IMG/VR virus record: IMGVR_UViG_3300046514_000361
Strand: one strand, 5' to 3'
Length of the DNA: 31,002 nucleotides
Origin: an uncultured virus (IMG/VR IMGVR_UViG_3300046514_000361)
Taxonomy: Duplodnaviria > Heunggongvirae > Uroviricota > Caudoviricetes
The translations under genes and the position numbers were made by a program. The notes beneath the pieces are model-generated. The model made no database searches, was not told where the DNA came from, and saw only the letters and a program-made list of their open reading frames with translations. This document shows, piece after piece, positions 930 to 29,020 of this stretch (its first letter is position 1; the number at the start of each line of letters is the position of its first letter).

Positions 930-1079
930 GGGAGGAAGCTCCCCAAAAGCAAACGCCGCCAGGGCGGAAAGCCGAGGCGGCGTGCATCGTTTGCGGGGTG
1001 ACCAACGAAAACCCAGGGAAGGAGAAAACCCGGATTCCGCGAATCTGATTTTTTTAATACGCTCATTTCATCCCATCCG

Positions 1080-1847: not shown

Positions 1848-3416
1848 TCAGTCATCCAGGGATTTGTAGGCGCAGGCTTCGACGTCGAAGCGAAATTTGA
1901 TGTGGCCTTTTGAGCCTGAGTCATCGAACCGAACTTTGCGGATGTACGCGGTCGCGGTGTTTGGCTCGTCGGTGTAGATCACGACGCCATGGTCGGGCTT
2001 GTTGTACCAGTGCGCGGACCCATCGATGTCGTACAGCGTCGGTGGTCGCGACTTGCCGTCCTTGCCGACGTCTTTGGTTGGGTGTGCGACGACGATGACG
2101 GCGACACCGTATTGTTTTCCCCATCGACGCAGCATGCGGATCGCCCGGCCGATATATTCCCCGGTTGATTCGTCCTTGCGTCTCGCGTGTTCGACCTCGT
2201 TCCAGGGATCGATGATCAGTAGGCGTATGCCATCACGCAACACTGCGTCGGTTGCACGGTCGAGAATCCAATCGAGCGTGAGGTCTGTATCGAGATCGTT
2301 GCCTGCTGGATCGTCATCGATGAATAGAAACCAATCGTTGATCCAGCCATCGACGCGGGCGATTTCGTTGAGATCGAGGTAGAACGGTCTACGCCCGAGC
2401 TTGATGCGGCGCAGCTTGTCGCGGAGGTGGGGGATGATCGACATTTCCGGCGAGTAGATCGCGGTGCGCCATTCGTGCTTGTCGGACATTTGTCGCGCGA
2501 TGTTGAGTACCCAAGTGCTTTTGCCGTGGCCTGGAATCCCGGTGACTACCATGAACTCGCCGGGAAAGATCGTGAGGTTGTGGTCAAGCATTCCGAGGCC
2601 GGTCTTGTAGGTGACGAGCGGCGGCAGATCGGGATAGTCGAACAGCCGATAGAGTCCGCGCACTGGGTATGGCTTGGCGTTATTGAGCACATCGCGCACG
2701 GCCTCTAATCCGAAATGCATACAGACTTCGTTGAGGTCTTTGCACGGGCGCAGCTTGCCGTTCTTGCCGAGAACTCTTGGCTCTTCCGGATACGTCACGT
2801 ACAGGCAGCGTGCTGCCGACAATCGGCGCACGAGTTCGGCGGCGAGACGTTGGCCGGGTTCGTCGTCGTCGCTGGCGATGATGAATCGTTTGATCGGCTT
2901 GAGGCGGTCGCGATTATTCCAGATGAACTGAAATTTGCTCGTTCGCTCAGCTTCGGGATCGAGAGGGTCAAGATCGTCAGGCTTACGGCCTTCGGGCACG
3001 GGTGGTGCGCCATCCGGCACTGAGACGGTGAGTGGCCAGCCGCTTTCGATTGCGGTCAATCCATCGACTTCGCCTTCGGTGATGACGAGCGGCATCCTGC
3101 CATCGGTGAGTGCGGGATCGTCCAAGACGTCGGAATTCCAGAATGTGCGGCGTCCGCCTTCACGTTGCCAGAAGCGCGGTCGGCCGTCCTCGATTTCCCA
3201 CGGCATGCGGCGATATTTTTCGGCGACGGTGGTACCGTGCTCGATAGTTGGAAAGACGATGATGTTGCCGTCTGGATCGGGCACGACTTCGCGTCTGCCG
3301 TTCGAATTTTGCACCGATCTAGCGGTATAGATTTCGAACCGCGCGGCCGTCTCGCAACTGATCCCGCGGGTTTCGAAAGCCTCGGCGGCCTTCATGCCGA
3401 GCACTTTGCTGTCCAT
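1848..3416 (-). CDS. TOPRIM primase-SF4 helicase (T7 gp4/Twinkle-like) lacking the N-terminal Zn finger
   Basis: ITEGEVDGL (TOPRIM E), SDDDEPG (DxD), Walker A GIPGHGKS, Walker B LIIDP, VVAHPTK; AAAGGAG RBS 9 nt before ATG at 3416. Confidence 0.9.
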   Translation of the reverse strand: MDSKVLGMKAAEAFETRGISCETAARFEIYTARSVQNSNGRREVVPDPDGNIIVFPTIEHGTTVAEKYRRMPWEIEDGRPRFWQREGGRRTFWNSDVLDDPALTDGRMPLVITEGEVDGLTAIESGWPLTVSVPDGAPPVPEGRKPDDLDPLDPEAERTSKFQFIWNNRDRLKPIKRFIIASDDDEPGQRLAAELVRRLSAARCLYVTYPEEPRVLGKNGKLRPCKDLNEVCMHFGLEAVRDVLNNAKPYPVRGLYRLFDYPDLPPLVTYKTGLGMLDHNLTIFPGEFMVVTGIPGHGKSTWVLNIARQMSDKHEWRTAIYSPEMSIIPHLRDKLRRIKLGRRPFYLDLNEIARVDGWINDWFLFIDDDPAGNDLDTDLTLDWILDRATDAVLRDGIRLLIIDPWNEVEHARRKDESTGEYIGRAIRMLRRWGKQYGVAVIVVAHPTKDVGKDGKSRPPTLYDIDGSAHWYNKPDHGVVIYTDEPNTATAYIRKVRFDDSGSKGHIKFRFDVEACAYKSLDD

Positions 3417-3627
3417 AGAACTCGGCTCCTTTCCAGTCGCAGTGGAAGCAGTGGTAGAGCACCGCATCGGTGGTGATCTTCACCGACAGGCAGCGATTGC
3501 GTTTTTTGCGCCGCAGATGCGAGCATTGCGGGCATATCGTGAGATACGCGCCGACGTTTTGACGTGGCACAACGATGTGCAGTTTTTGCAGTGCCTCATG
3601 TGCGCTGTCACAGCGCCCAGTCGCCAT
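3319..3627 (-). CDS. Primase zinc-binding domain as a separate ORF
   Basis: CPQCSHLRRKK...CLSVKI...YHCFHCDWKG Cys4 ribbon typical of the N-terminus of gp4/Twinkle-like primases. Confidence 0.75.
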   Translation of the reverse strand: MATGRCDSAHEALQKLHIVVPRQNVGAYLTICPQCSHLRRKKRNRCLSVKITTDAVLYHCFHCDWKGAEFYGQQSARHEGRRGFRNPRDQLRDGRAVRNLYR

Positions 3628-20793: not shown

Positions 20794-21609
20794 ATGACCA
20801 AAGCACCGACGACGAAAAAGGTTGAAGACAAGCCAGAGGCCAGGAAGATCGCGACCGCAATCGTGAAGCCTGCGGAAAAGATCATCACCAGCAAGACCGG
20901 GATCATGATCATTCCCGGCGTCAAGACCATGACGCTGACCACACTGATTGTCGGGACAGCGCCAATGATCGCGCACCAGTTCGATCAGAAGGTGATCGGC
21001 TCAATCCGCGACAAGCACATGGGCAAGGCGAGCGAGGGTCGCGAGGCGAAAGACCCGGAAGCCAATTTCGAGGCGGCGCGCTATCGCCTCTCGGACGGCA
21101 GCGATGGCGTCCCGGCAGGCGGCATCAAGGCGGCGATCACCAACGGATTCCCGAAGGGCAGCGGCGTCACGCAAAAATCCGCGAAGGGCTTGCGCGTCAT
21201 CGCCGACGATCCTCGCATCAATCTGGTGCGCATCATCGGGCCAAGGCTGAGCGCCGAACAAATGAAGTTGCCGGTCGATGCGCCGGGTCAATGGCCGCGC
21301 ATGCGTGAGGACGTCGTGCGAAATCAGACCGGCGTCGTGGATATCCGTCATCGTCCGGAATACTGGCCGTGGGCGATGGCGATCTCCGTTCAATATCTTC
21401 CGAGCATGATCTCGGCGAACCAATTGCTGCAGGGCATCGCGATGGCCGGGCACATCGATGGCTTGTGCGAATGGCGGCCGGGCAGCAAGGAATCGAAGAG
21501 CGGCACCTATGGCACTTGGCGGCTCGCGACCGCCGAGGAGGTTGAGCTTTTCGAGAAAGGTCTTTTGTTTGGTGGTGTGCAGCAGGCTCTTCGCGAAGCC
21601 GCCGAATAA
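20794..21609 (+). CDS. Stand-alone Cas7/RAMP-like RNA-binding protein
   Basis: First strand TTLIVGTAPMIAH, GVPAGGIKAAI (P...K helix), DIRHRPEYWPWAMAISVQY, and C-terminal Gly-rich loop AGHIDGLCEWRPGSKESKSGTYGTW; GAGAGG RBS; directly followed by the repeat array. Confidence 0.75.
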   Translation: MTKAPTTKKVEDKPEARKIATAIVKPAEKIITSKTGIMIIPGVKTMTLTTLIVGTAPMIAHQFDQKVIGSIRDKHMGKASEGREAKDPEANFEAARYRLSDGSDGVPAGGIKAAITNGFPKGSGVTQKSAKGLRVIADDPRINLVRIIGPRLSAEQMKLPVDAPGQWPRMREDVVRNQTGVVDIRHRPEYWPWAMAISVQYLPSMISANQLLQGIAMAGHIDGLCEWRPGSKESKSGTYGTWRLATAEEVELFEKGLLFGGVQQALREAAE

Positions 21610-21620
21610 AACATTGTGAT

Positions 21621-23140
21621 TGGCGCGGGTCGGTTGCGTACCGGCCCGCGTTCGGAGCGGCTGGGCTGGCACAGGCAGGGATGGTACCGGGATGGCTCGT
21701 ATGGTCACGGCAAGCAGTGGCAGGAGCGGAAAGCAAGGCATCGAAACGGTGCGGATGGTCCCGGCACGCACAGCAGTGGAACGGCAGGAGCGGACAGGCG
21801 AGCAACGTCTCGGCGTGCGGGGCGAGGCATGGAGAGGTTCGGCCACGCATAGGCTCGGCGCGGCAGGAGGGGCGTGGATCGGCGGGGCAGGGATCGCGAG
21901 GGCGCGGCGTGGATTGGCGCGGCGCGGCAGGAGCGGAGTGCATCGCATCGGCAAGGCGTGGAGTGGAGCGGCAGGAGAGGCACGGCGCGCATGGTCGGCG
22001 AGCATAGGAGCGGCGCGGCGAGGACTGGAACGGCAGGAGTGGAGCGGCCCGCATCGGATGGCGAAGGAACGCAAAGGTACGGCGGGCAACGGCAGGAGTG
22101 GAACGGCACCGCACAGCAGAGCGCAGGAATGTAACGGCCAGCAGTGAAGGGGAGCGGCAGGAGTGGCTTGGAAAGCAGTGGCTCGGACAGTCTGGGACCG
22201 TAGAGGAAGGCAACGGCAGGAGCGGATAGGCATGGACCGGCGCGGACGGTAGAGGCAGGCAGCGGTGCGGCTAGGCCCGGCGAGGTTTGGAACGGCAGGA
22301 GTGGAGCGGATGGCAGCGGCACGCGTGGGATCGGCGAGCATAGGAGTGGCACGGAGCGGCGCGGAGCGGCGCGGCAGGACCGGAGCGCAACGGCCCGCAA
22401 TGGCATGCATCGGCGAGGCGGGGAAGGGCGAGGCGAGGAGTGGCAGGAGCGGATGGCGGCGGCACGAAACGGCGCGGACGGCAACGGCAAGCACTGGACG
22501 GGTCTGCATCGGCGCGGCGCGGCAGGAGCGGCACGCATCGGCTCGTCGGGACATGGACGGCAAAGGCTTGGAAAGCCTGGGATAGGAACGGCAGGAGTGG
22601 ACGCGGCGAGGACTGAAACGGCAGGAGCGGATCGCAATGCAACGGCTTGGCGCGGCTCGTCATGCACGGGCAAGGAGTGCGATGGCTCGGATCGGCGCGG
22701 GTTGGCAGGAACGGCGGGGATGGTCGTGCATGGGCCAGGATCGGCCCGCAACGCATAGGCGCGGCAGGAAAGGAAAGCAGCGGCACGCATGGGCCTGGAC
22801 GGCACAGGTCGGCAATGCACCGGCGCGGCAGGAGCGGAGCGTACTGGCGTGCATCTGAATGGAACGGCAAGTGAGGGACCGGCAGGGCAGGAACGGCTCG
22901 CACCGCAGAGGCGCGGACGGCCAAGCACTGGACGGGCGAGCAACGGAGCGGATCGGCAGGAGCGGAGAGCAACGGCAGGGGTGCGGAAGGGATGGCAAGA
23001 GGCGAGGAATGGCGAGCATTGGCAGGAGCGGCACGCATAGCAAAGGCGAGGAGCGGACGGGCGAGGAATGGCGCGGCGCGGCAGGAGCGGAGTGCATCGC
23101 ATCGGCAAGGCGTGGAGTGGAGCGGCAAGGAGCGGAATGG
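21621..23140 (+). repeat. Non-coding pentamer-periodic array (G(G/C)(C/A)NN)n with GGCAGGA delimiters; putative guide-RNA array
   Basis: GGCAGGA at 21719, 21783, 21862, 21926, 21970, 22032, 22091, 22156, 22215, 22294, 22373, 22442, 22521, 22590, 22620, 22704, 22763, 22827, 22886, 22955, 23021, 23080; 5-nt periodicity between them; strongly G-rich and T-poor on +. Confidence 0.9.
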
Positions 23141-23174
23141 TTCTTTTTTACACCAAACAACAGGAGCAACTTAG

Positions 23175-24015: not shown

Positions 24016-24609
24016 ATGGAAACCGTCAGCGTGAAGATGCCGCCCAGCGAGGCGCGCGATCTCTATCGGAAGTACAAGCAGCACCTCCACCATTCTGAGC
24101 GGATCGATCACGAGTGCCTGCGCGCCTATCAGTTGCTGGCGCAGGGGCGGCTGCTCATCAAGGCATTGGAGAGCATCAAGGCGGCGGGCCTCAACGCCGA
24201 AGGCTTGCCCAGGCTCGCCATTGCGCCGATGAACGCGACGACGTGCGACTGCCGCGTCTATGCGAGCGGGGCGGCGGTGTTCGATGGGCGCAAGGAGAAG
24301 GGCTACAGGGGCGGCGACGACACGCGCGAGTGGCTGACGCAGCGCGCCTACTTCCGCTTCCCGCGCGGGTCGTTCGCCGCCACGCGCGAGATATGGCGCG
24401 CCACCGCGCTGGTGCCGGGCGTGCCGGTGCATCTGCGCCCGGCGCGCGGTCAGGCCAACTATCACATCCTGTGGGAAGCCGAGTGGACCCGCATCGCGCC
24501 GCGTGACCCGTACCTGCTGCGGCGGATCGGCAAGGGCGATCTGTGGGTGATCTGCGCGATGTGGAATCTCACCGAGGTCGAGCGCGCGGCGCTCTCGACG
24601 CGGCTCTAG
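24016..24609 (+). CDS. Conserved hypothetical phage protein
   Basis: GGAG/AGGA RBS; HILWEAEW...DPYLLRRIG...W.LT.VE. Confidence 0.75.
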   Translation: METVSVKMPPSEARDLYRKYKQHLHHSERIDHECLRAYQLLAQGRLLIKALESIKAAGLNAEGLPRLAIAPMNATTCDCRVYASGAAVFDGRKEKGYRGGDDTREWLTQRAYFRFPRGSFAATREIWRATALVPGVPVHLRPARGQANYHILWEAEWTRIAPRDPYLLRRIGKGDLWVICAMWNLTEVERAALSTRL

Positions 24610-24623
24610 ATCGGGGAACAGCC

Positions 24624-24836
24624 ATGCCGAACAACAATCACGAGCCGATGCTGCAGTTCTTCACGTTCGAGCACTTGAAGCCAGAATTGCGCGAGATCAG
24701 TGCGCCGTTCGCCGGGCTTGCCAAGCAGATCGTAGACACGCTGCCGCGCAATCCCGAGCGCACCGTCGCGTTGCGCAAGCTGCTTGAGGCGAAAGACTGC
24801 GCTGTTCGCGCCAAGCTGTTTCGTGCCGAGGGATGA
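24624..24836 (+). CDS. Small helical-hairpin phage protein
   Basis: LQFF.FEHL...LPRNPERTVALRKLLEAKDCAVRA; GGGGA RBS. Confidence 0.75.
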   Translation: MPNNNHEPMLQFFTFEHLKPELREISAPFAGLAKQIVDTLPRNPERTVALRKLLEAKDCAVRAKLFRAEG

Positions 24837-25064
24837 GGCGAGGTTACCTGCTGCCGACTTCACCCGCAGCCGCGATGGCAACGGGCGAGCGTGCAAGGCG
24901 CTACAAGCCGCGATTCCGGAGGGCAGCAGGTTCGAAGATGCATCCGGTGAAATCGCGGAAGCCATCAAACGGCCAAGTCGGCCAAGAGTTGAGCCATGGT
25001 TCGGCAACGCATGGATATTTCCATCTCAACGACTCGCATGGTATCAATGTGAGGGAGTAGGCCG

Positions 25065-25436
25065 ATGGCGGCACGCGCCCGAGAGCCAGCGTTGTACGGG
25101 ACCGAAGACCAGATTTCGGAAATGGTCCTTGGTCCCGGCCACCTTCGCGATTGGCGCGAGAAAGCGGTGCTGCTTGAACGCGAGGGCTTGCCCAAGATCG
25201 ACCCGCTCATGGGCGGCCGATATCTCCCGGCGGTTCGCATGTTCTTCGACCGGCGCAATGGATGCGCGCCGGGCAACACTTCACTCAAGGTAGACGGACC
25301 TGAAAGATGGCCAAAGCAGAAACCAAGACTGCCACCGAAGCCGACGCCAACACCCTCGACGCCCCAGGACTTGAGTGGCGCGAGCGGGCAGGAGGAAAAC
25401 GTATTCCCATTTGGGTCGCCGCCAAGAAAGCCGTGA
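25065..25436 (+). CDS. Excisionase-like protein
   Basis: LEREGLPKIDPLMGGRYLPAVRMFFD; directly upstream of and overlapping the integrase; GGAG RBS. Confidence 0.65.
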   Translation: MAARAREPALYGTEDQISEMVLGPGHLRDWREKAVLLEREGLPKIDPLMGGRYLPAVRMFFDRRNGCAPGNTSLKVDGPERWPKQKPRLPPKPTPTPSTPQDLSGASGQEENVFPFGSPPRKP

Positions 25437-26638
25437 AGGCTGGCTACCGGCCCAAGTCGGTGAAGCTCGCCGACGACGCCAAGCCCGAGGCGCTCGCTGC
25501 GTTGTGCCGTCACCTGACCAACACGATGCGCGAGTGGCAGGGATCGGCCGACCGCGCGAACGTGAAAGTGGCCGCGCGTTGCGACGGGACGGTCGCGGGA
25601 CTCATTCGGGCCTACGAGACAAGCCCGGCGTCGCCGATCAATCGACCGTACAATCCAGACTCGAAGACGCCGACTGGCGTGAAGTTCAACTCGCGCAAAA
25701 TGTATCTCGACCAGAACAAGATACTTTACGATTTCGTCGGCCCGCGCGTGCTCGTCAACATCACGGGCGAGCAAATCTGGCAATGGTACGACCATTTGAT
25801 CGAGCCGGATCGAGAGGGCGGTCCTGAGCGGATCGCGCGTGGCAAGAACGCGATGGGGCAGTTCACGCGGCTGGTGAAGTTTGGCCTCACGGTCGGGATC
25901 GAAGGCTGCGACAGGCTAGCTTTGATTCTGACCGGTGGCGGCCTAGGGAGTCCGTTCCGCTTCCCCAACCCGGAGCGCCGCGACGAGCAACTCACACACA
26001 AGCAACTGCTAACGTTCTGCGCAGCGGCTGACAAAATGCGATGGAATGGCAAACCGTATTTTTCGCTGGCGCTCGGCACGGTCCTGCAATTCGAGGCGGG
26101 CGTGCGGCAGGCCGACATCATCGGCCAGTGGTGGCCGGTCGAGAAGTCTGCGAACGGCACGCTGGTGCGCGACGGCTACCAATGGCGCGGGCTGACCTGG
26201 GGCACACACCTCGATCCGGTGACGTTCGAGTTAAAAAAGCCGACATCGAAGAGCAAGGGCAAGAAGACCGCCATGGCCTACCTGAATGCGTCGCCCCTGG
26301 CGAAGGCGTGGCTGGAACGGATTCCGCGCGAGCAACGCATCGGGCCGGTGGTGATCAACGAGATGACGGGGCGTCCCTATGACCGTTCTGCGTACCATGA
26401 AAAATGGCGACGGGTGGCCAACGCGGCTGGCATTCCCAAGGCCGTGCAGAACCGGGATGCCCGCGCGGGCGCGATCACCGAGGCAGACGACGCTGGCGTC
26501 GAGAGCGGGCGCACCCAAAGGGTCGCCACGCATGGCACTGCCGAACAGACGCGTGGCTACAAGCGCGAGCACATGGAGAACGCCAAGCATGTGCTCACCA
26601 AGCGCGTTGCGGCGCGCAAAAAGGCGAGTCCGGATTAG
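25307..26638 (+). CDS. int: Tyrosine recombinase/integrase
   Basis: FEAGVRQADI (R), K in KSKGK, NRDARAGAITE (x-x-x-R box II), THGTAEQTRGY (H...Y). Confidence 0.85.
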   Translation: MAKAETKTATEADANTLDAPGLEWRERAGGKRIPIWVAAKKAVKAGYRPKSVKLADDAKPEALAALCRHLTNTMREWQGSADRANVKVAARCDGTVAGLIRAYETSPASPINRPYNPDSKTPTGVKFNSRKMYLDQNKILYDFVGPRVLVNITGEQIWQWYDHLIEPDREGGPERIARGKNAMGQFTRLVKFGLTVGIEGCDRLALILTGGGLGSPFRFPNPERRDEQLTHKQLLTFCAAADKMRWNGKPYFSLALGTVLQFEAGVRQADIIGQWWPVEKSANGTLVRDGYQWRGLTWGTHLDPVTFELKKPTSKSKGKKTAMAYLNASPLAKAWLERIPREQRIGPVVINEMTGRPYDRSAYHEKWRRVANAAGIPKAVQNRDARAGAITEADDAGVESGRTQRVATHGTAEQTRGYKREHMENAKHVLTKRVAARKKASPD

Positions 26639-26659
26639 TCCGGATTAGTCCGGATTAGT
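26627..26659. repeat. Tandem repeat AGTCCGGATT x3 spanning the integrase stop
   Basis: Read directly. Confidence 0.9.
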
Positions 26660-26767
26660 TGAGAGAACGCGGACGTCACTGAGATCATTGGGAGAAACAC
26701 GAAGTGAGACAACTCCTAGGAGTCTCCTAGGAGTCTCGTCGGAGTAGGACGGAAGGGGGAACACGGG

Positions 26768-26894
26768 TTTCCAACGGATTTCCAACGGAGCAAGATTCTC
26801 TAGATGAATCAAAGGCCCAGCCAAATCGCCAATTTGGACTAAGTCTTTGAAAAATCTAGCCGCCGTTGGCCCGTTGGAAAGTCGAATTCCAACG
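26768..26894. other. attP-like region: imperfect palindrome with arm-like repeats
   Basis: TTTCCAACGGA x2 (26768, 26779), inverted CCGTTGGAAA (26871), inner imperfect inverted repeat 26800-26859, IHF-like TAAGTCTTTGAAA. Confidence 0.55.
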
Positions 26895-26952
26895 TTTTTC
26901 CCCCTTTCGTTCTCCCGCTCAACGGGTTCACACCAGCGAAGGAGGACTGCCA

Positions 26953-27504
26953 ATGTCGATGCTCAGCTTAGGCCGCAATGGCAACGGGAAGGCCGCCCAG
27001 GCGCGTGTCGAGCCGCCGCCCTATCCGCCCGCCCCACCGCCCGAGGTGCAGCACTACGCGCCAAAGCCTCACGCAGGCCCGCACGAGCTTGGCACCCACA
27101 CCCTGCAGAACGTGGACGACATCACCTCGATGTCGGCCGAGCAGATCGAGCGCACCGCCGACCAAGTCGAAGAGGCCGGGCGCGAGGTAGCCGACGTCCT
27201 GCGCGAGGCGGCGAGGCGGGTGCGCCATTCTGGCGTGGTCGCCAACGAACGGCTGGCCAACTACGTCAGGGTCGTCACGACGTGCGCCGAGGCCGCCAGG
27301 GTGATGCAGCGTTCGGTCGAGCATCGCGACCAGCCGCAGCCCCCGCCGCCACCCCAGGAGGTCGAGACGGCCGCGCACGTCCATGCCGAGACGGGCGAAC
27401 CGACGCCCGCCGCGACCCCTGATCTCGACGCCATCGCCGAGCAACTCGGAACGCTCGCCCGCCGCGAAGGAGCTACCGCGCACAGCGACGGTGTCGCCAG
27501 TTGA
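26953..27504 (+). CDS. Hypothetical protein
   Basis: AAGGAGG RBS before ATG 26953; helical core with Pro-rich flanks. Confidence 0.75.
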   Translation: MSMLSLGRNGNGKAAQARVEPPPYPPAPPPEVQHYAPKPHAGPHELGTHTLQNVDDITSMSAEQIERTADQVEEAGREVADVLREAARRVRHSGVVANERLANYVRVVTTCAEAARVMQRSVEHRDQPQPPPPPQEVETAAHVHAETGEPTPAATPDLDAIAEQLGTLARREGATAHSDGVAS

Positions 27505-27516
27505 TGGAGTGGGGCG

Positions 27517-28065
27517 ATGTCCCGCTCCCGCACCGATCAGCGGTTGGTGCTCGCGCTGTTCTACGCGAGCATCGCCGCCGAGGTGGTCGCCTGGATCGCG
27601 TTCGCCATGGTGATCGTGATCGTGGCCAGCTTGCTCAACCCGCAGCTTGCGCACGGCGGTCCAATCGAGGACCGCTGGCCGCACGATCTCGCCGCACCGA
27701 GCGCGTTCGACGCGGCGAGCTTCGTCAACGCCTGGGCGGCGGCCGACGAGCCGCCGCCGACGCCGCCCAGGCCGGTCCCGCTGCAACCGCCGATGCCGAA
27801 GCTCAAGCCGCCAGCACAGAGTCACCCGATCATCTGCGCGAGCGGCCCCGACAAGAGCACTGTTCGGTGGATGTGGCGCGAGATCGATGGGCGGCGCTGT
27901 TGGTACGTCGGCACGGCATTGGTGGACAAGTCGCGGCTGCGCTGGCCACGCGCGCCGGTGCATGTCGATCCGGTCCCGGCCAAGAACACCTACGCGGCCC
28001 ACGGCGGCGGGCAGGTCCGCCGCGTGGGCCACTACCCACACGGGACACCGGAGTGCTGCTGGTGA
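27517..28065 (+). CDS. Membrane-anchored or secreted hypothetical protein
   Basis: N-terminal hydrophobic helix, Pro-rich linker, W.WREIDGRRCWY.G. Confidence 0.65.
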   Translation: MSRSRTDQRLVLALFYASIAAEVVAWIAFAMVIVIVASLLNPQLAHGGPIEDRWPHDLAAPSAFDAASFVNAWAAADEPPPTPPRPVPLQPPMPKLKPPAQSHPIICASGPDKSTVRWMWREIDGRRCWYVGTALVDKSRLRWPRAPVHVDPVPAKNTYAAHGGGQVRRVGHYPHGTPECCW

Positions 28066-28380
28066 TTACCGCCGTCGCTTTCGCGGGAGCGAAAACAGAT
28101 CGATGACCTCGACATGCAGAGCCTTGGCGACCTGTTCGAGTCGCCGGATCAATGGCGTAGCGCCGCGCTCCCAGCGGGAAACCGTCATCGGAGTAACCCG
28201 CAGAAGCTGGCTAAGCCGCGCCTGGGTCATGCCGCGCACGGCGCGCCACTCCCCGATGTATAGCCGTGTCTTGCCCACAATTTCGGCACCTCCCGCCGGA
28301 ATCGAAGGTACTCGGGAAGGAAATATCCATTCAATAGACATTATCTGGCTAGGCGCCACGCGGTACGTGGATGTTGGCAC
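28066..28380 (-). CDS. XRE-family HTH regulator
   Basis: IGEWRAVRGMTQARLSQLLRVTPMTVSRWERG...LEQVAKALHV; start uncertain. Confidence 0.8.
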   Translation of the reverse strand: MPTSTYRVAPSQIMSIEWIFPSRVPSIPAGGAEIVGKTRLYIGEWRAVRGMTQARLSQLLRVTPMTVSRWERGATPLIRRLEQVAKALHVEVIDLFSLPRKRRR

Positions 28381-28484
28381 AGCACACGTTTCGCGATATG
28401 AACATACAATGTTTAGGATGTTGATCTATCGCAATTGCGACGGCACGGAATTTGTTACCGACGCTCGTCTGTTTGGGGCGGCCA

Positions 28485-28871
28485 ATGGATATTCCCTTCC
28501 GCGAGCCGAGACTCGTTTATCTCCGCATGCAGGCGGACCTGCAGCGGAATGCGGCCAGCAGCTACTATCCCGAGTTGCCGCTGCCAGAAGCCATCGAAGT
28601 GTCGGCGATCTCCAACGCGATCTTCATCGCCGAAGCCGATGGGACGCCCTTCACCACGCCTGCGCTCGCCAAGCACATCGGTATCCCAATCAAGACGTTG
28701 CGGCGTCGGCTCGCCGGTCTCAGAGCAAAGGGATACGTCCGCTACATCGGGCGGCAACGCCTCGGCATCAACATGACGATTTTGTTAGAGCCACAGCACG
28801 CGGAGAATCTCGCGCGGGCCTGCAAGATCATCATCGATGCGGCGGCAGCGTTGTCCAAGCTGGAATGGTAA
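28485..28871 (+). CDS. Winged-HTH protein
   Basis: PFTTPALAKHIGIPIKTLRRRLAGLRAKGYV. Confidence 0.7.
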   Translation: MDIPFREPRLVYLRMQADLQRNAASSYYPELPLPEAIEVSAISNAIFIAEADGTPFTTPALAKHIGIPIKTLRRRLAGLRAKGYVRYIGRQRLGINMTILLEPQHAENLARACKIIIDAAAALSKLEW

Positions 28872-29020
28872 CGACTTCGCGGTCGGCGGGCCAAATTGGC
28901 CACCTGTCACGAAAAATTTCGCATAACGTGGAACGTGTGATGGATATAACCATTGCGCACAGACAACACTGTCGTAAGATTGTCATGCGGGGAAGTTGCG
29001 TCCAGAAGGGGAAATAACCA

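Follow-up and report, generated by a model that had tools for sequence, protein, structure and literature searches.

VIPR, a CRISPR-related RNA-guided silencer of DNA described in 2026, combines a stand-alone RAMP protein, Vipr, with adjacent guide RNAs (vrRNAs) of 9–16 pentamers, each made of GGY and two variable bases (10.64898/2026.04.26.720920). According to the portions of that report available to us, the variable bases recognise double-stranded DNA, one target base being passed over per pair, the skipped base of natural targets falls mostly at the wobble position, and the systems are mostly phage-encoded and directed at rival mobile elements. The same portions give further repeat forms (NNNGG, YNNNG and NNNNG), and the legend of fig. 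S18 refers to 'staggered vrRNA arrays', in which the vrRNAs overlap by 1 nucleotide (nt) (10.64898/2026.04.26.720920). Two later reports, as far as available, describe non-canonical fixed trinucleotides in VIPR-like clusters (10.64898/2026.10.21.760802) and 'solo' vrRNAs, encoded by satellites, by which the VIPR of a phage is redirected (10.64898/2026.10.15.759431). Here we analyse a 31,002-nt stretch of DNA from an uncultured Caudoviricetes virus (IMG/VR record IMGVR_UViG_3300046514_000361; the whole stretch is called the window), in which a G-rich tract of five-base units at 21621–23140 follows a gene for a 271-amino-acid (aa) protein and precedes a gene for a 189-aa protein. Sequence comparison makes it very probable that this tract is the vrRNA array of a phage VIPR system with the staggered architecture. 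The locus adds a large example to a known kind, VIPR, without being a new sort of element, and it leaves the overall picture of VIPR unchanged.

The guide-array reading is supported by family membership and by conserved synteny. With staggered VIPR, as far as the available text describes it, the locus shares a phage-encoded stand-alone RAMP gene beside a long intergenic tract, pentanucleotide repeats with a fixed part and two variable bases, and abutting units whose one-base overlap gives spacings of 5n+4. The likening goes through the fig. S18 legend, and the 1-nt overlap is met here at the DNA level, in 17 of the 21 spacings of the window, 26 of 27 in the related locus L010 and 18 of 19 in L017.

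Structure of the pentamer array

The heptamer GGCAGGA occurs 22 times on the plus strand between 21719 and 23080, starting at 21719, 21783, 21862, 21926, 21970, 22032, 22091, 22156, 22215, 22294, 22373, 22442, 22521, 22590, 22620, 22704, 22763, 22827, 22886, 22955, 23021 and 23080; the rest of the window holds four copies on the plus strand and two on the minus strand. Mononucleotide shuffles of 21621–23140 (n=2000) contained 0.71 copies on average and five at most. A preliminary description of this DNA had listed the 22 delimiters together with their spacings (64, 79, 64, 44, 62, 59, 65, 59, 79, 79, 69, 79, 69, 30, 84, 59, 64, 59, 69, 66 and 59), and our recount agreed exactly. Its remark that 17 of the 21 spacings equal 5n+4 (4 modulo 5, or 5n−1) was borne out as well, the probability of at least 17 of 21 at p=0.2 being 3.4e-9. 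The period-5 autocorrelation peak that it expected was found, with a lag-5 identity of 0.470 in the tract versus 0.261 elsewhere in the window, and with further peaks at lags 10 and 15 (0.45). The tract is 46% G, 24% C, 21% A and 9% T, and the GC skew over 21501–23000 is strongly towards the G strand (0.28–0.33).

We computed per-position statistics over 207 pentamers, drawn from the 18 units in register. Every one has G at position 1 (0.04 bits); position 2 is G (66%) or C (27%), with 1.24 bits, and position 3 is A (53%), C (39%) or G (5%), with 1.39 bits and a purine share of 58%. Positions 4 and 5 are near-maximal, at 1.94 and 1.87 bits, so that the variable information sits in these two bases (NN), as the preliminary description had held; the pentamers of its example unit, 22215–22293, are also as it gave them. 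What is present is a tandem 5-nt repeat with a fixed trinucleotide and two hypervariable bases, the fixed part being G-[G/C]-[A/C] and not the canonical GGY.

The delimiter, described at first as 9 nt long, recurs as stated, but a 4-nt step, GGCA, and then an ordinary pentamer, GGA(G/A)N, describe it better; the spacing of 5n+4 would arise if GGCAG and GGAGC share one G. Twenty-two GGCA-punctuated units, the candidate vrRNAs, occupy 21719–23143 on the plus strand, each composed of GGCA, a pentamer GGA(G/A/C)N and 6–15 G-[G/C]-[A/C]-N-N pentamers. Counted with the leading GGA(G/A)N, the units hold 7–16 pentamers, and those in register 8–16. The total comes to about 23, because one more unit, not preceded by GGCA, is found at 21654–21718 on the same strand (unit 0; 13 pentamers from GGAGC, in phase with the first delimiter). 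One guide is present twice, in units 21926 (21926–21969) and 23080 (23080–23123), and the four off-register units (62, 65, 30 and 66 nt) look like normal units with indels of 1–2 nt inside one pentamer. The earlier figure was about 22 distinct guides; we count about 23 units with one guide duplicated, and the idea of a guide array is supported through family membership. The range had been drawn from 21621; bases 21621–21653 form a hairpin, and the remainder is array.

Indels in 4 of the 21 units, a duplicated guide and the lack of any target found would also suit a VIPR array that has decayed or become inactive, a genuine remnant with guides that have lost their function. We consider this highly improbable, as the vipr gene and the partner open reading frame (ORF) are intact, the G at position 1 is kept in all 207 pentamers, and contig pieces from four soil or rhizosphere sequencing runs (2020 and 2023) show no differing letter and no gap where they cover the array. 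No single metagenome piece spans the array; the pieces break at the duplicated unit, where a 59-nt piece has about double depth.

Other readings of the tract fared as follows. The preliminary description was correct in rejecting both a slippage microsatellite and a 3-periodic coding repeat: the tract is not a reading frame, because the spacings are not multiples of 3, and the coding reading was rejected on that ground together with plus-strand ORFs of at most 175 aa. A CRISPR array was rejected too, the sole repeated element being 7–9 nt long and the units being built of pentamers; Tandem Repeats Finder did not report the tract as one array and found no direct-repeat period of 23–55 nt in it. 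On the minus strand, three long antisense frames (520, 467 and 285 aa) stay open through the array (21001–23169), because the G-rich strand is T-poor, and gene callers may annotate them. The 520- and 467-aa frames were considered as genes and are without support.

The Vipr homologue and related loci

The vipr gene (20794–21609, plus strand; product P0001, 271 aa) ends 44 nt before the first repeat unit. The protein has 121 relatives at E≤1e-3 in a large protein collection, none with a Pfam domain, and itself has no match in Pfam, NCBIfam or PADLOC; in PHROGs it falls into phrog_4652, of unknown function. A profile of 46 homologues matches the PDB chain 36pp_D, 'SUSP1 Vipr protein', with E 6.6e-7 over the segment RHRPEYWPW...GLCEWRPG. 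The AlphaFold model (pLDDT 85.4, pTM 0.79) has 46 Foldseek matches in the PDB at E≤1e-3, every one a chain of a CRISPR effector complex, with 8do6_E as the best (1.6e-5, probability 1.00). The named subunits include Csm3 (5yjd_B), Cmr6 (4w8v_B) and Cas7-11 (7x7a_A), and the predicted fold corresponds to that of RAMP chains in the Csm, Cmr and type VII complexes. Judged from the profile match and the modelled structure, the product is a Vipr homologue, a stand-alone RAMP (Cas7-like) protein; Vipr proteins are characterised by an RRM core, a G-loop and a thumb.

In SUSP1 Vipr, the fixed bases are contacted by H17, R138, D177, W178 and R179, according to the available part of the source (10.64898/2026.04.26.720927). 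In our alignment, R138 corresponds to R187 of the 271-aa protein, D177 to E226 (a conservative change), W178 to W227 and R179 to R228, and these four residues are invariant or at least 90% conserved in the family alignments; H17 aligns with the invariant H61, in a stretch that is non-significant on its own. The soil phage thus shares these base-contact residues with the type II VIPR of SUSP1, as far as that system is described in the text available, and with SUSP1 and P. fulva it would share one protomer per 5-nt repeat and 9–16 repeats per guide. Its units are separated by only GGCA, which fits the staggered form, and the locus is therefore not filed under type II. Class 1 CRISPR effectors (Cas7/Csm3 on crRNA) have in common with it the RAMP fold, periodic binding and bases flipped at fixed intervals; the array differs from them in lacking 23–55-nt direct repeats, contiguous spacers and other cas genes, and in its period of 5 nt with two pairing bases, whereas that of Class 1 CRISPR is 6 nt with five pairing. 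A TRAP-like ring binding RNA every 5 nt was an early idea, dropped in view of the neighbouring RAMP gene and the VIPR papers.

Searches of viral, genome and metagenome collections, by flanking protein or by delimiter, gave a set of related loci. Among the 28 delimiters of L010, 26 of the 27 spacings are 4 modulo 5, and among the 20 of L017, 18 of 19; in L055, which was recovered by its DNA pattern alone and encodes a Vipr homologue (28% identical), all eight internal spacings are in register. The fixed trinucleotide varies by phage, being GGC or GCA in L010, mostly GCA in L017, GGA in L055, GGC in L153 and GTT in L155. In the reverse complement of L055, the array (about 2800–3450) consists of nearly all GGANN pentamers, and a strong hairpin with a T-run lies about 100 nt past it. 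L155, an AT-rich metagenome contig, carries GTTNN pentamers at about 644–842 and keeps the GGCA step (...GTTAT GGCA GTTGC...); the punctuation thus appears conserved while the fixed trinucleotide follows genome composition. The GGCA step is common to the related arrays and one sub-clade has GGCC, a junction count that is rough because GG doublets blur the exact position of the slip. Across 13 arrays with 165 guides, no run of five or more NN pairs is common to two arrays, which indicates a conserved scaffold with NN content particular to each phage.

Synteny is conserved likewise. In 29 of 40 loci with a Vipr homologue (L126–L165), a homologue of the 189-aa partner (P0002) lies downstream on the same strand, the two genes being −9 to 3235 nt apart. 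Of the remaining 11 loci, at least seven were judged, from locus lengths, to reach the contig end within or soon after the array. Where the gap between vipr and the partner gene is small, the period-5 signal, often a single 100-nt window, comes after the partner gene instead. Three loci (L143, L128 and L145) have 2.5–3.2 kb between the two genes, largely of period-5 sequence, and in L151 the signal extends over about 2.7 kb up to the contig end. These four arrays may hold several dozen guides, some with the GGCC step.

One related locus lies on a contig of a Xanthobacteraceae metagenome-assembled genome (MAG), which, with the soil and rhizosphere origin of the sequencing runs, gives a hint of the host. 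In this MAG, the vipr and partner homologues bear locus tags 04285 and 04300, three steps of 5 apart. Going by the numbering only, this leaves room for two called features between them.

The variation among related arrays bears on two further explanations of the tract. As a non-coding RNA, it could be a sponge or decoy for CsrA/RsmA through GGA, for the 30S subunit through the Shine–Dalgarno-like CAGGAG, or for competitors' Vipr. The 22 CAGGAG-like motifs and the many GGA pentamers recall the CsrB and RsmZ sponge RNAs, which are also G-rich, non-coding and full of GGA or CAGGA-like motifs; L055, with almost only GGANN followed by a strong terminator hairpin, is in keeping with this, and redirection of phage VIPR by the satellite 'solo' vrRNAs is described in the available part of the report on them (10.64898/2026.10.15.759431). 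However, GGA is not conserved, its place being taken mostly by GCANN in L017, by GTTNN in L155 and by GGCNN in L153, and an Rfam gathering search of the whole window gave no match to any family, the Csr and Rsm families included. A GGA sponge would also leave the strict 5-nt phasing with free NN unexplained; that phase and the linked RAMP gene are features of the array and not of Csr RNAs. Nor is the array a solo decoy, because it always stands beside its own vipr gene. We give the sponge or decoy very little credence, less than the decayed array.

Slighter still is the chance of an element acting at the DNA level, such as a cluster of Chi-like or packaging sites, or an R-loop or G-quadruplex tract, beside the late genes. 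The strong G-strand skew over 21501–23000, the asymmetric motif confined to one strand and the location between lysis-like and late genes are in its favour. Yet the array of distant relatives is found on either side of the 189-aa gene, always inside the vipr cassette, and the GG runs that a G-quadruplex would use are not conserved, as the mostly GCANN array of L017 illustrates; DNA-level models leave the free NN, the fixed G every 5 nt and the adjoining RAMP gene unexplained. The sponge, Chi or packaging-site and R-loop or G-quadruplex proposals were early ideas, dropped in the light of the RAMP gene, the VIPR papers and the lack of conservation of GGA and GG.

Targets and mode of action of the candidate guides

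Two sets of observations weigh against the guide-array reading, one on the likeness to characterised VIPR systems and one on targets. The sequence match to SUSP1 Vipr, and with it the significant similarity between a 271-aa and a 202-aa protein, spans 47 residues only, and the Foldseek TM-scores of the model are 0.4–0.5. SUSP1 has GGY as its fixed part, as described in the available text, whereas the soil-phage array has GGC, GGA or GCA and often carries A at position 3; a purine stands there in 58% of pentamers, and the SUSP1 pocket is said to exclude purines in the available part of the source (10.64898/2026.04.26.720927). The structured 3′ tail is absent: SUSP1 is described, in the same limited text, as having four vrRNAs of about 100 nt, each with a pseudoknot tail of about 40 nt, whereas the soil phage has about 23 tail-less units separated by GGCA only. 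Confirmation by small RNA sequencing is stated, in the available portions of the VIPR report, for the ribozyme-interspersed and single-vrRNA architectures and not for the staggered one (10.64898/2026.04.26.720920).

The second set comes from the target searches. With one base skipped, 5 of 95 guides scored at least 0.85 against 767 kb, compared with 21 of 950 shuffles, and 146 guides against about 0.98 Mb of phage DNA gave 9 of 146 versus 24 of 584; the larger target set included four whole phage records (G001 and G003–G005), and the controls of both scans were pair-shuffled guides. Rules skipping 0–3 bases behaved alike, with no excess over shuffled guides in the 0.77-Mb or the ~0.98-Mb set, and these local scans are uninformative because the databases are too small. 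Guide 22215 at full length, with up to three mismatches allowed, had no match in five records, nor in 401 genomes from the family to which the Xanthobacteraceae MAG belongs. Four exact cores of eight or nine pairs gave 0, 4, 38 and 9 matches in IMG/VR, none of which extends convincingly.

By guide, the nine pairs of 22620 had no match in IMG/VR, and the eight pairs of 22442 had four; the best of them, L182, agrees at 21 of the 24 interior positions, but its skipped base falls on codon position 1. Eight pairs of 22215 gave the 38 matches, in about 11 sequence families (best 22/30), and eight pairs of 22294 gave nine, in about five families, the best of which, L228, is at chance level (24/30); the backwards-read control of the 22294 pattern had one match. 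Targets are thus not established, because by our own arithmetic matches of 21/24 or 23/28 are expected by chance in such a collection.

L228 is a phage contig of 65% GC. The matched stretch belongs to a DUF2800 (PF10926) nuclease gene and is in its sense strand; the skipped base falls on the wobble position, and over the first ten interior NN pairs of guide 22294 the agreement is 18 of 20 positions (L228 1495–1540), at the conserved GWATCSDYV motif. The named DUF2800 homologues are from Sphingomonas; at the place for which the guide calls for T-A-A, each of the 25 homologues examined retains N-A-N. The gene is a candidate target class only, not above chance.

Against their own record, the 17 in-register guides scored 0.60–0.79, which is the level of shuffles, and an absence of self-targeting is likewise reported in the available portions of the VIPR description (10.64898/2026.04.26.720920). 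A coding-orientation test of the NN strings was weakly positive, with a variance of 11.45 versus a null of 9.67±0.98; the fractions of shuffles reaching the observed values were 0.038 and 0.012. The preliminary description had proposed guides bounded by the delimiter as a processing or assembly boundary and read as NN-x-NN-x with the skipped base on codon wobble positions. This agrees with the published VIPR grammar and with the Vipr homologue upstream, but the target searches lend it nothing: those following the NNx pattern, which it had suggested, stayed at chance, and they are underpowered.

By extension of the SUSP1 work, the array would act as follows. The G-rich strand would be transcribed, and one Vipr protomer would sit on each 5-nt repeat, holding the fixed trinucleotide G-[G/C]-[A/C] and leaving the two variable bases exposed to pair with double-stranded DNA in the NN-x-NN-x register. 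The bound gene would be silenced; it would probably belong to a rival phage, prophage or satellite that shares the soil host. The one-base-short repeat GGCA would mark the end of one guide and the start of the next; this step may replace the ~40-nt pseudoknot tail of type II vrRNAs, serving as a cleavage site or as a break in the filament register. In a variant that we think rather unlikely, the guides would be cap-less and the register-breaking GGC(A/C) would act as a ruler, stopping one Vipr filament and seeding the next. The 1.5-kb transcript might then be cut at the steps by some activity, or the ~23 filaments might stay together as beads on a string. If true, guides would be measured by a slip of register, with neither a Cas6-type hairpin nor a pseudoknot, and the tolerance of purines at the third position would point to a base pocket of altered shape.

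Because there are about 23 tail-less guides here and gaps of up to 3.2 kb in relatives, against four tailed guides in the characterised VIPR, the locus offers a compact and conserved test case for the delimiting of staggered vrRNAs, for a pocket that takes A or C, and for the aims of large soil-phage guide sets.

Flanking features and neighbourhood

A GC-rich leader hairpin (21620–21655, plus strand) fills the interval from the vipr stop codon to the first repeat unit. Its best 45-nt fold has −27.0 kcal/mol, compared with −18.8±2.8 for shuffles, and a strong but non-homologous hairpin stands at the matching place in about 10 of 19 loci examined. It may be an attenuator that sets the ratio of protein to array transcript, or a 5′ stabiliser. 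At the other end, the array is closed by a T-run, TTCTTTTTT (23141–23149, plus strand), without a preceding hairpin; L010 and L129 have a similar CCTTTTTT after the last GGCAGGA. A promoter and terminator scan found no promoter-like site and did not call the closing T-run; the one terminator-like site that it gave is on the minus strand, inside the next gene, and shuffles gave more.

The partner gene (P0002; 23175–23744, plus strand), a candidate vipr-accessory (vap-like) gene, forms one cassette with vipr and the array, all three being on the plus strand. Its 189-aa product has invariant W57, R72 and Y108, no match in Pfam, NCBIfam, PADLOC or PDB sequences, and membership of phrog_15946, of unknown function, in PHROGs. 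Atlas returned viral hypothetical clusters for it, and structural leads to winged-helix-like folds are weak (TM 0.35–0.40). The gene may be a vap gene.

The window belongs to a 61-kb uncultured virus record, whose completeness is estimated at 64%. The record contains one such tract; elsewhere in it, one isolated 100-nt window (975–1075) exceeds the period-5 threshold. Nearby phage genes encode a primase/helicase, a RecE-like exonuclease, a ParB-like protein and an endolysin-like protein with a peptidoglycan-binding domain, and the array lies between the lysis-like gene and unannotated late genes. Four plus-strand ORFs at 24016–29017 (197, 169, 443 and 456 aa) have no match in Pfam, PHROGs or NCBIfam, and PADLOC found none for the 197-, 169- and 443-aa ORFs. 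Just past the 443-aa ORF are two exact tandem repeats unrelated to the array, AGTCCGGATT in 3.3 copies (26627–26659) and CTCCTAGGAGT in three copies (26713–26745).

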